From NCBI RefSeq assembly GCF_024298765.1, contig NZ_CP101210.1: 64,000 nt of DNA, one strand, 5' to 3'. The position numbers and the translations under genes are program-made. Under the pieces are notes generated by a model that was given only the letters and a program-made list of their open reading frames with translations, was not told the origin of the DNA and searched no databases. Source of the stretch: Escherichia coli (GTDB taxonomy: Bacteria > Pseudomonadota > Gammaproteobacteria > Enterobacterales > Enterobacteriaceae). Shown here piece after piece: positions 4,471 to 12,582 of the stretch. The number at the start of each line of letters is the position of its first letter. Within the stretch, counting starts at the first letter, position 1.

Positions 4471-7564
<3,094 letters not shown>

Positions 7565-7566
7565 CG

Positions 7567-7944
7567 ATGATCAATTCGCCCCGAGTGTGTATTCAGGTTC
7601 AAAGCGTCTACATTGAGGCACAATCTTCACCTGATAATGAACGTTACGTTTTTGCTTATACCGTAACCATACGCAATCTGGGGCGAGCGCCAGTGCAGTT
7701 GTTGGGGCGTTACTGGCTGATCACCAATGGCAATGGCCGTGAAACCGAAGTCCAGGGCGAAGGAGTGGTTGGCGTCCAGCCACTTATCGCACCTGGCGAA
7801 GAGTACCAGTACACCAGCGGTGCAATCATTGAAACCCCGCTGGGCACCATGCAGGGTCACTACGAAATGATCGATGAAAATGGCGTCCCTTTCAGCATCG
7901 ACATTCCCGTATTCCGACTCGCCGTTCCCACACTCATTCATTAA
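7567..7944 (+). CDS. apaG: ApaG (DUF525) protein
   Basis: ATG at 7567 gives 125 aa starting [10 protein letters not shown]; the longer ORF from 7513 overlaps rsmA and is rejected. Confidence 0.9.
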
Positions 7945-7950
7945 AAGAAT

Positions 7951-8799
7951 ATGGCGACATACCTTATTGGCGACGTTCATGGTTGTTACGATGAACTGAT
8001 CGCATTGCTGCATAAAGTAGAATTTACCCCTGGGAAAGATACCCTCTGGCTGACGGGCGATCTGGTCGCGCGCGGCCCGGGTTCGCTGGATGTTCTGCGC
8101 TATGTGAAATCCTTAGGCGACAGCGTACGTCTGGTGCTGGGCAATCACGATCTGCATCTGCTGGCGGTATTTGCCGGGATCAGCCGCAATAAACCGAAAG
8201 ATCGCCTGACACCGCTGCTGGAAGCGCCGGATGCCGACGAGCTGCTTAACTGGCTGCGTCGCCAGCCTCTGCTGCAAATCGACGAAGAGAAAAAGCTGGT
8301 GATGGCCCACGCCGGGATCACGCCACAGTGGGATCTACAGACCGCCAAAGAGTGCGCGCGCGATGTAGAAGCGGTGCTGTCGAGCGACTCCTACCCCTTC
8401 TTCCTTGATGCCATGTACGGCGATATGCCAAATAACTGGTCACCGGAATTGCGGGGGCTGGGAAGACTGCGGTTTATCACCAACGCCTTTACCCGTATGC
8501 GTTTTTGCTTCCCGAACGGTCAACTGGATATGTACAGCAAAGAATCGCCGGAAGAGGCCCCTGCCCCACTGAAACCGTGGTTTGCGATTCCTGGCCCTGT
8601 CGCTGAAGAGTACAGCATCGCCTTTGGTCACTGGGCATCGCTGGAAGGCAAAGGTACGCCGGAAGGTATTTACGCGCTGGATACTGGCTGCTGCTGGGGT
8701 GGTACATTAACCTGCCTGCGCTGGGAAGATAAACAGTATTTTGTCCAGCCGTCGAACCGGCATAAAGATATGGGTGAGGGAGAGGCGGCTGCGTCTTAA
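7951..8799 (+). CDS. apaH: Diadenosine tetraphosphatase (symmetrical)
   Basis: 282-aa ORF, metallophosphatase motifs (GDVHG, GNHD). Confidence 0.95.
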
Positions 8800-9097
8800 A
8801 TCCCGTCGAGCATAAAATCTAATGCTCCTTTAATCAACGTTCGGTGCGCGCTGGCATCGCAAAATTTCGTTCCCAGCGCGTTAACTGGAACAGTTGCAGT
8901 CTCATGCGTCATGAGCCGTCTACCAGTAAAAGGATTGTGTTAAGCCGTTCTGGAGGGCGAATACGGATAAATCGTTCAATAGGTGTTAATGGAATAACAA
9001 TACGGCGATTAATCTCACCAATAATGTCGCTGGTAACATCGATAACAAAGGGAAACGCGGCGTTCCTGCCGCGACTGCGGTATACCGTAAATTGCAT
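8796..9097 (-). pseudogene. ccdB: ccdB-like gyrase-poison toxin gene, frameshifted: N-terminal 62 codons 9097-8912 then TGA; C-terminal part continues in another frame 8912-8796
   Basis: N-terminal ORF MQFTVYRSRGRNAAFPFVIDVTSDIIGEINRRIVIPL aligns with F-plasmid CcdB; conserved C-terminus [38 protein letters not shown] is read in a different frame immediately downstream. Confidence 0.7.
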
Positions 9098-9099
9098 CG

Positions 9100-9333
9100 C
9101 TAGAAGCTCCGGTACTCATCAGAGAAACATCCGGTTTCATCAGCCAATTGATTTAACGCAGCGATAGCTTCTGCGTTCTCTTCACGCCAACGTATTGCTG
9201 CATGTTTTTTAAGTTCAGCATTGAGCGCAACCGTAAGGGTGGCGCTCATATTTAAGCCTGCATCACGAGCGCGATTGACTAACTCACGGTCGACGGTGAC
9301 GGTCACACTTTGTGTGGTACGTTTTGCAGTCAT
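9100..9333 (-). CDS. ccdA: CcdA-like antitoxin
   Basis: 77-aa ORF with VTVTVD...W.EEN motif pattern similar to F-plasmid CcdA; stop is 2 nt before the ccdB-like ATG. Confidence 0.8.
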   Translation of the reverse strand: MTAKRTTQSVTVTVDRELVNRARDAGLNMSATLTVALNAELKKHAAIRWREENAEAIAALNQLADETGCFSDEYRSF

Positions 9334-9418
9334 GATATCGTGCTCCTGTACAATTTATACGTCTAGTAAACACGGATATCTGCACGTATCAGTGATGCCG
9401 GAATTCTAATATACAAAA

Positions 9419-11944
<2,526 letters not shown>

Positions 11945-11952
<8 letters not shown>

Positions 11953-12475
11953 GATGTGCCTCCTGCCATTCCAGCAGACGTTGCTTATAGTGCCGCGCCT
12001 GCCCTTCGAGGGTTTCGTCGTCACAAATAAAGGTGCAGTGCATGGCAAACGGTGGCAGCCAGTTCAGCCCGCAGTAGATTGCCGTCGCCTGTAGCGGCTG
12101 TGACAGCACATCAAAGCCCGGATGCGCACCAATCTCAAAATGGCTTTCCCCACCGCCGGTCGTCACCGCCCACAGTAAATGTTTGCCATGCAGCGCCGTG
12201 CCGCCGTGACCGTAAGCCCAGCCGTGCGAGAAGACTTTATCGATCCAAAGTTTAAGAAGCGGAGGAATGCTGTACCACTGCATCGGGTGCTGCCAGACGA
12301 TCAGATCGGCGCGAGACAGCGCCTCCTGCTCGGCGGCAATATCGATATTGAAGTCAGGATAGAGTTGATAAAGAGAGCGAATTTCGACGCCTTCCAGCGT
12401 CCTTGCCTGTTCAAGCATCCGTTTATTCGCATGGGAATGATGCGGATACGGATGCGCATAAATTATAAGAATCAT
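11945..12475 (-). CDS. kefF: KefC ancillary protein / quinone oxidoreductase KefF
   Basis: 176-aa ORF, flavodoxin-like; overlaps kefC start. Confidence 0.95.
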
Positions 12476-12582
12476 AGGTAGCCCGCGTGATTACGCCTTT
12501 GTTTTCCCACAAAGTGTAGTCATATATTCACGCGGCTTATAGTCAATAATATTGATTCAGAAAAGAGAGAAATCTGAACAAA

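Follow-up and report, generated by a model that had tools for sequence, protein, structure and literature searches.

The apaH/ccdB stop-codon overlap at the edge of a decaying ccdO157 islet in Escherichia coli

According to three papers that cite Mine et al. 2009 (PMC3184786, PMC7167474, PMC7232551), the folA-apaH region of Escherichia coli is plastic, carrying REP sequences, ccdO157, a defective ccdO157 or none of these, and the apaH-folA spacer of K-12 is 77 bp long. [quoted passage not shown] Chromosomal ccdB has been truncated frequently and independently in ExPEC (bioRxiv 10.1101/2021.09.24.461737). Convergent overlaps of four nucleotides, formed via TTAA, CTAA, TTAG or CTAG, make up a recognised common class (Lillo & Krakauer 2007, PMC2174442). 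For E. coli, 58 convergent overlaps are given, together with rho-independent terminators for only ~20% of genes (PMC2174442), and a further source counts 75 convergent overlapping pairs in an E. coli reference genome (PMC4161906).

Here we describe the point at which apaH meets a ccd module in a window of 64,000 nucleotides of E. coli DNA (contig NZ_CP101210.1 of assembly GCF_024298765.1). Genes follow one another in the order pdxA, rsmA(ksgA), apaG and apaH on the plus strand, then ccdB, ccdA, folA and kefC on the minus strand. The order folA, ccdA, ccdB, apaH is that of the known ccdO157 locus, from which nothing essential differs; what sets the window apart is a 13-nt deletion allele, one T-to-I change in CcdA and one synonymous SNP in apaH. 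The geometry of the junction, with stops on opposite strands within one tetramer, is that of the class of Lillo and Krakauer. However, this junction marks the edge of an islet gained by horizontal transfer and is not a product of stop-codon drift between resident genes, and one of the two overlap partners is a pseudogene in this strain. We conclude that the overlap is real, that it is already present in public annotation, and that it is a low-interest edge of a known, decaying toxin-antitoxin islet.

The apaH/ccdB junction and its neighbours

The module next to apaH is a chromosomal ccdO157 type II toxin-antitoxin islet. It lies between folA and apaH, with 96.3% identity to the locus of E. coli O55:H7 RM12579, and nucleotide identity to loci of the O55:H7/O157 type ranges from 96 to 99%. 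Coordinates of the features are collected in Table 1.

Table 1. Features of the apaH-ccd-folA region, in positions of the window
Feature	Position	Strand	Basis
apaH, bis(5'-nucleosyl)-tetraphosphatase, 282 aa	7951..8799	+	ORF list, Pfam Metallophos and RefSeq coordinates, in agreement in L001 and L002
C-rich, G-poor untranslated RNA directly downstream of the ccdB stop, candidate Rho loading region	8718..8795	-	Base composition
TTAA tetramer common to both convergent frames	8796..8799	.	Sequence, RefSeq annotation, 12-locus alignment
ccdB pseudogene (ccdBO157 type)	8796..9097	-	N-terminal frame 8909-9097 (62 aa + TGA), C-terminal frame 8796-8912 (38 aa + TAA)
13-nt deletion site, CACATATTCTTTG missing (plus strand), placement ambiguous by 1 nt	8915..8916	.	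Alignment with intact O55:H7 allele
ccdA antitoxin gene, intact, 77 aa	9100..9333	-	Pfam PF07362, E = 6.9e-26; RefSeq CcdA
ccdA upstream region, islet-specific, presumed ccd promoter/operator	9334..9396	-	Comparison with K-12; promoter assumed from operon organisation
Core spacer, ~22 nt beside the folA stop, GCCGGAATTCTAATATACAAAA resembling the K-12 spacer end GCCGTAAATTCTATACAAAA	9397..9418	.	Aligned by eye
folA, dihydrofolate reductase, 159 aa	9419..9898	-	Pfam DHFR_1, E = 3e-60; RefSeq

The last gene of the pdxA-rsmA-apaG-apaH cluster, apaH, ends in a TAA at 8797-8799 on the plus strand. From the opposite direction, the C-terminal CcdB frame (8796..8912, minus strand, 38 aa, ...ALDFMLDGI*) ends in a TAA that is the reverse complement of 8796-8798. 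Direct reading of the sequence gives TGCGTCTTAA for bases 8790-8799. Bases 8797-8798 belong to both stop codons, bases 8796-8799 (TTAA) belong to both ORFs, and the third base of the last ccdB codon, for Ile, is 8799. The preliminary description of this DNA had reported such an overlap, at 8796-8799, between apaH and the C-terminal frame of a ccdB-like remnant. The overlap is confirmed by the sequence, the ORF list and RefSeq, and the word remnant is apt: both fragments match Pfam CcdB (PF01845), and PGAP applies the label 'frameshifted'.

RefSeq/PGAP annotates the 4-nt overlap likewise in near-identical genomes (in the comparison loci L001 and L002, the apaH annotation runs up to locus position 750 and that of ccdB begins at 747), and the TTAA is unchanged in 12 of 12 aligned ccd-bearing sequences. 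The tetramer fits the class of 4-nt convergent stop-stop overlaps (TTAA/CTAA/TTAG/CTAG). With respect to translation of both frames, apaH qualifies; the C-terminal frame of ccdB is cut off by a frameshift in this strain and is intact in L002 and L010-L014. In the window, the overlap pairs a real gene, apaH, with a relic ccdB frame, because a 13-nt deletion separates the C-terminal frame from the ccdB start.

The ccdB stop lies at the native position of the family and is not borrowed. Intact CcdB spans the PF01845 profile to its last position (101 of 101), and over its full length the intact allele can be aligned with the CcdB structures 2KMT (V. fischeri) and 1VUB (F-plasmid), the terminal G-I included. 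Plasmid-encoded CcdB proteins of Hafnia alvei, Klebsiella aerogenes and Serratia symbiotica all have 104 aa and end in LDG[I/V]; their genes stop at TGA, TGA and TAA, respectively. These plasmid ccdAB systems, like those of the F plasmid and Vibrio fischeri, belong to the same families (PF01845 and PF07362) as the chromosomal ccd. Plasmid ccdAB copies, however, have downstream non-coding DNA of their own, whereas chromosomal ccdB runs straight into apaH. The bases of the ccdB stop (8796-8798), together with base 8799, are also found in chromosomes that have no ccd: the apaH end TCTTAA of ccd-free K-12 already contains the reverse-strand TAA, and TCTTAA is present in the DUF4291-type locus (described below) as well.

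On the other side of ccdB, directly upstream and likewise on the minus strand, lies ccdA, whose stop is separated by 2 nt from the ccdB ATG. The ccdA product differs from the O55:H7 protein by one residue (T to I), the result of a SNP at 9194 that only L001 has likewise. Upstream of ccdA, a scan for the ccd promoter gave no consensus sigma-70 site at the threshold used. Position 9369 is A in the window and in 3 of 11 other loci and T in the rest, which turns a GTATAC palindrome upstream of ccdA into GTTTAC; we take GTATAC to be the CcdA operator motif of the F plasmid. The folA gene is convergent with apaH and co-directional with ccdAB. The ORF list extends folA to 204 aa (9419-10033, minus strand) through an upstream in-frame ATG, and annotation and Pfam back the 159-aa form. 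An Rfam scan of 7000-11000 (E <= 1) returned nothing but a spurious miRNA match at 9943-9990.

Islet borders and the three locus architectures

We searched 5426 complete E. coli genomes for the apaH-folA region. The 831-bp apaH-ccd-folA segment is present at a coverage of at least 80% in 2021 of them, and a 50-mer spanning the apaH/ccdB junction in 2016 (~37%), which leaves ~63% of E. coli genomes without this junction. The apaH/REP junction of the K-12 type occurs in 2856 of the 5426 and the corresponding 50-mer of a third, DUF4291-type junction in 458. The junction reflects one inherited historical event, not recurrent coincidence. At 100% identity the junction 50-mer of the window is found in none of the 5426 genomes, the window having a synonymous apaH SNP at 8790 (GCT versus GCC/GTC). 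The closest match over the 831 bp is strain 104 (chicken, China), at 99.9%.

The third architecture is exemplified by L004 (NZ_CP029692.1, 2651-4075), in which a DUF4291 gene, a hypothetical gene and a 45-aa C-terminal remnant of CcdA lie between apaH and folA. The abstract of Mine et al. 2009 reportedly includes a class with a large DNA piece and a ccdA remnant, to which the DUF4291-type architecture presumably corresponds. L003 (K-12 BW25113) has a REP palindrome, GCCGGATAAGACGCG...CGTCGCATCCGGC, between the stops of apaH and folA, and the window has none. The 77-bp REP spacer of K-12 occupies the same site between the same two stops and folds as a stable stem-loop; in the window the ccd islet replaces it.

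When the junctions are compared side by side, all three architectures are identical through ...GCGTCTTAA and then part at once. The first bases after the apaH TAA are ACACAG in K-12, ATCCCG in the ccd type and CGAATT in the DUF4291 type. On the right side, the ccd and K-12 types both keep ~22 nt beside the folA stop. Islet-specific DNA runs from 8800/8801 to ~9396, a length of 596 nt in the window; intact alleles have 609 nt. The borders were taken from this direct comparison of junctions, as MAFFT misaligned the right flank of K-12. Comparison with strains that have no insertion, which the preliminary description had called for, places the islet borders at 8800/8801 on the left and ~9396/9397 on the right. 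That description also held that the module adjoins apaH with no spacer and no obvious terminator. Both points stand: the K-12/REP, ccd and DUF4291 architectures all diverge immediately past the apaH stop, and at the junction neither strand has a predicted canonical intrinsic terminator, a hairpin followed by a T-run.

Variation between locus types is also seen just inside apaH. The last ~25 nt of the gene (8766-8795; 715-744 in L003) differ by a 6-nt indel and SNPs. ApaH has 282 aa in the ccd and DUF4291 types, with the C-termini ...GEGEAAAS and ...DLGEGEAVAS, and 280 aa, ending ...DLGEAAAS, in the K-12/REP type; the exact K-12 apaH end is found in 2544 or more genomes of the REP type. Such differences point to an exchanged segment, or a variable patch linked to it, that extends into the coding end of apaH. 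A scan of species-representative genomes for the ccdB 3' motif hit one E. coli contig only, with the same junction, and found no donor.

Decay of ccdB

The intact reference allele is that of E. coli O55:H7 RM12579 (L002), which encodes a CcdB of 104 aa. In the window there is no intact full-length toxin frame of about 101-105 aa; it is split into pieces of 62 aa and 38 aa. Both pieces score above the gathering threshold of PF01845, the N-terminal fragment at profile positions 1-56 (E = 4e-14) and the C-terminal fragment at positions 65-101 of 101 (E = 4e-8). Since ccdB is frameshifted, translation from its ATG (9097) ends at a TGA, the reverse complement of 8909-8911, and not at the junction with apaH. 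PGAP labels ccdB 'frameshifted' in L001 and L009. We counted the deletion allele with a query of 25+25 nt spanning the deletion junction and found exact matches (100% identity) in 258 of the 5426 genomes; the carriers include isolates from birds, dogs, pigs and humans.

With its antitoxin gene intact and its toxin gene a pseudogene, the locus is a decayed member of the family, in the typical 'decay' state of the ccdO157 system. The abstract of Mine et al. 2009 is said to name a variant class with 'active antitoxin, inactive toxin', and we take the ccd locus of this window to match it. Activity of a ccdAB toxin consists in the poisoning of gyrase, which the antitoxin neutralises; given the frameshift, toxin activity would not be expected here. 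The deletion also creates an ATGA stop/start overlap at 8909-8912 on the minus strand, in which the TGA of the 62-aa fragment overlaps the ATG that opens the 38-aa frame. The 38-aa frame is reachable only through ribosome reinitiation at this ATGA. Such termination-reinitiation could release a free C-terminal peptide of CcdB (...MLDGI). Reconstitution of the toxin from the two CcdB fragments, both of which are without the KEYVL strand, seems unlikely.

A different decay allele was seen in L015 (227-511), where a C-to-A change at the equivalent of window position 8828 creates a TGA and yields a CcdB of 94 aa. This protein ends 27 nt short of apaH, and the stop overlap is lost. The L015 allele is probably the '95 aa' truncation cluster of an earlier report (bioRxiv 10.1101/2021.09.24.461737).

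Transcription across the junction

Consensus scans of 8400-9700 and 5500-12500 found no intrinsic terminators at the junction on either strand. The only matches in 8400-9700 were three weak minus-strand sites inside ccdB, at 9003-9073. Likewise, no terminator is predicted on the minus strand in 9334-9418, the interval that separates the stop of folA (9419) from the start of ccdA (9333), and read-through from folA could therefore feed ccdA-ccdB and continue toward apaH. Read-through across the junction itself is predicted to be possible.

Rho is the other means by which transcripts could end here. In the 78 nt that follow the ccdB stop, C = 28 and G = 15, a C/G ratio of 1.87, which lies between the window-wide 95th (1.73) and 99th (2.23) percentiles. 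Judged by base composition, Rho-dependent termination would be favoured by such C-rich, G-poor untranslated RNA. Rho polarity should increase at this locus, because the frameshift ends translation ~115 nt earlier, at 8909-8911. Rho generally suppresses antisense read-through, and polarity from the premature stop should, if anything, reduce antisense read-through in this strain. In F-plasmid ccd, CcdB co-represses the ccd promoter. By analogy, loss of CcdB as co-repressor might raise ccd promoter activity here.

On the whole, we consider it probable that the TTAA overlap is the left boundary of a ccdO157 islet that stands in place of the REP spacer, and that the junction is a passive one. A stretch of ~600 bp, made up of ccdA, ccdB and the upstream region, fills nearly all of the space that separates apaH from folA, two convergent core genes, and the islet is joined in such a way that the native ccdB stop coincides with the reverse-strand TAA already contained in the apaH end (TCT-TAA). 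Joining at the short microhomology TTAAA, or later loss of a spacer, appears to be the simplest reading of how this came about. Since then, about 37% of E. coli have inherited the junction, by vertical descent or through homologous recombination. The toxin gene of the present strain has decayed through the 13-nt frameshifting deletion, and its ccdA is intact. The junction would have no dedicated function. The ccd transcript would be ended mainly by Rho, which would act on the C-rich RNA that lies antisense to the 3' end of apaH and is not translated. The apaH transcript would continue for some distance antisense to ccdB until Rho terminates it or its 3' end is processed.

Three other readings were weighed against this one. 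Convergent transcription could couple the two units functionally, with interference or RNase III-sensitive duplexes tying apaH, which encodes an Ap4A hydrolase, to ccd autoregulation. In such a model ccd transcripts would run antisense into apaH and transcripts of the apaH operon antisense into ccdBA, and in ccdB-null alleles such as that of this strain, with no CcdB to act as co-repressor, ccd transcription would rise and the effect would be stronger. The zero spacer and the lack of a canonical intrinsic terminator on either strand are consistent with this model, as is the co-repression by CcdB that is established for F-plasmid ccd. So is a comparison with the Serratia symbiotica plasmid, where a GC-rich stretch and then a T-run, CTTTTTGTTT, can be read from the sequence a few bases after the ccdB stop. 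This stretch reads like an intrinsic terminator, and chromosomal ccdB has no comparable stretch; folding puts the main hairpin of the plasmid slightly downstream of CTTTTTGTTT. Against coupling, the RNA beyond the ccdB stop is C-rich and not translated, as is usual for a Rho substrate, and with the frameshift another ~115 nt ahead of the junction go untranslated. Furthermore, the junction is missing from ~63% of E. coli and the overlap is lost in the L015 allele, so there is no sign of selective maintenance, and a literature search on apaH, antisense and ccdB returned nothing relevant and no transcript data. We regard coupling as unlikely. A more specific proposal, that read-through ccd RNA regulates the 3' end of apaH in antisense and hence Ap4A hydrolysis, the strength of this regulation being set by a ccdB allele that is either intact (autorepressed) or decayed (derepressed but Rho-polar), strikes us as very unlikely. 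If it were true, a core gene of stress signalling would, in ~37% of E. coli, be regulated as a by-product of a decaying toxin-antitoxin islet.

The other two readings concern the 3' hairpins of ccdB and the stop assignments themselves. Folding of the plus strand places a small hairpin at 8808-8827 and a long, GC-rich one at 8835-8896 (core GCGCGCTGG / CCAGCGCG), both inside the 3' coding region of ccdB, and these could have been co-opted as a stabiliser or terminator of the 3' end of apaH mRNA in place of the K-12 REP. The interval 8800-8900 folds at -32.7 kcal/mol, with a z score of about -3.8 against dinucleotide shuffles (-3.75, -3.9); the equivalent region of the plasmid ccdB homologues has no such structure (z about 0); and across 12 loci only 2 of 62 positions vary in the hairpin, versus about 15 of 200 elsewhere in ccdB. 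However, when 1000 synonymous recodings that follow local codon usage serve as the reference, the same fold has a z of only -1.1 and 143 of the recodings fold as well, 16% of the 101-nt windows across the 64 kb are as stable as 8800-8900, no U-tract or T-run follows either hairpin, and the gap in variability is small and involves few sites. Ordinary against both the recodings and the window background, and without a U-tract, hairpin 8835-8896 was rejected as a selected 3' structure of apaH, and we give co-option of the hairpins scarcely any credence. It is extremely unlikely that either stop, that of apaH or that of the ccdB frame, has been placed wrongly and that no true overlap exists. Ribosomes that start at the ccdB ATG never reach the C-terminal frame here, owing to the frameshift, which is the one point in favour of an annotation artefact. 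Against it, the apaH frame is unambiguous (the RefSeq proteins have 282 aa), the junction bases are unambiguous as well, and intact CcdB of 104 aa ends exactly at the junction, matching the Pfam profile and the solved structures end to end. For intact alleles a mis-assigned stop is refuted by the L002 annotation, the Pfam profile and the solved structures.

On the favoured reading, that of a passive islet boundary, the junction matters little beyond correct annotation, and it would be biologically interesting only if antisense read-through measurably altered apaH expression. What the analysis provides are precise borders for the islet and a census, over 5426 genomes, of three architectures and of the 13-nt deletion allele. 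The junction is the exact left border of a textbook decaying chromosomal toxin-antitoxin islet, and it illustrates that a horizontally acquired module can join so tightly that the stop codon of the incoming gene sits in bases of the host gene.
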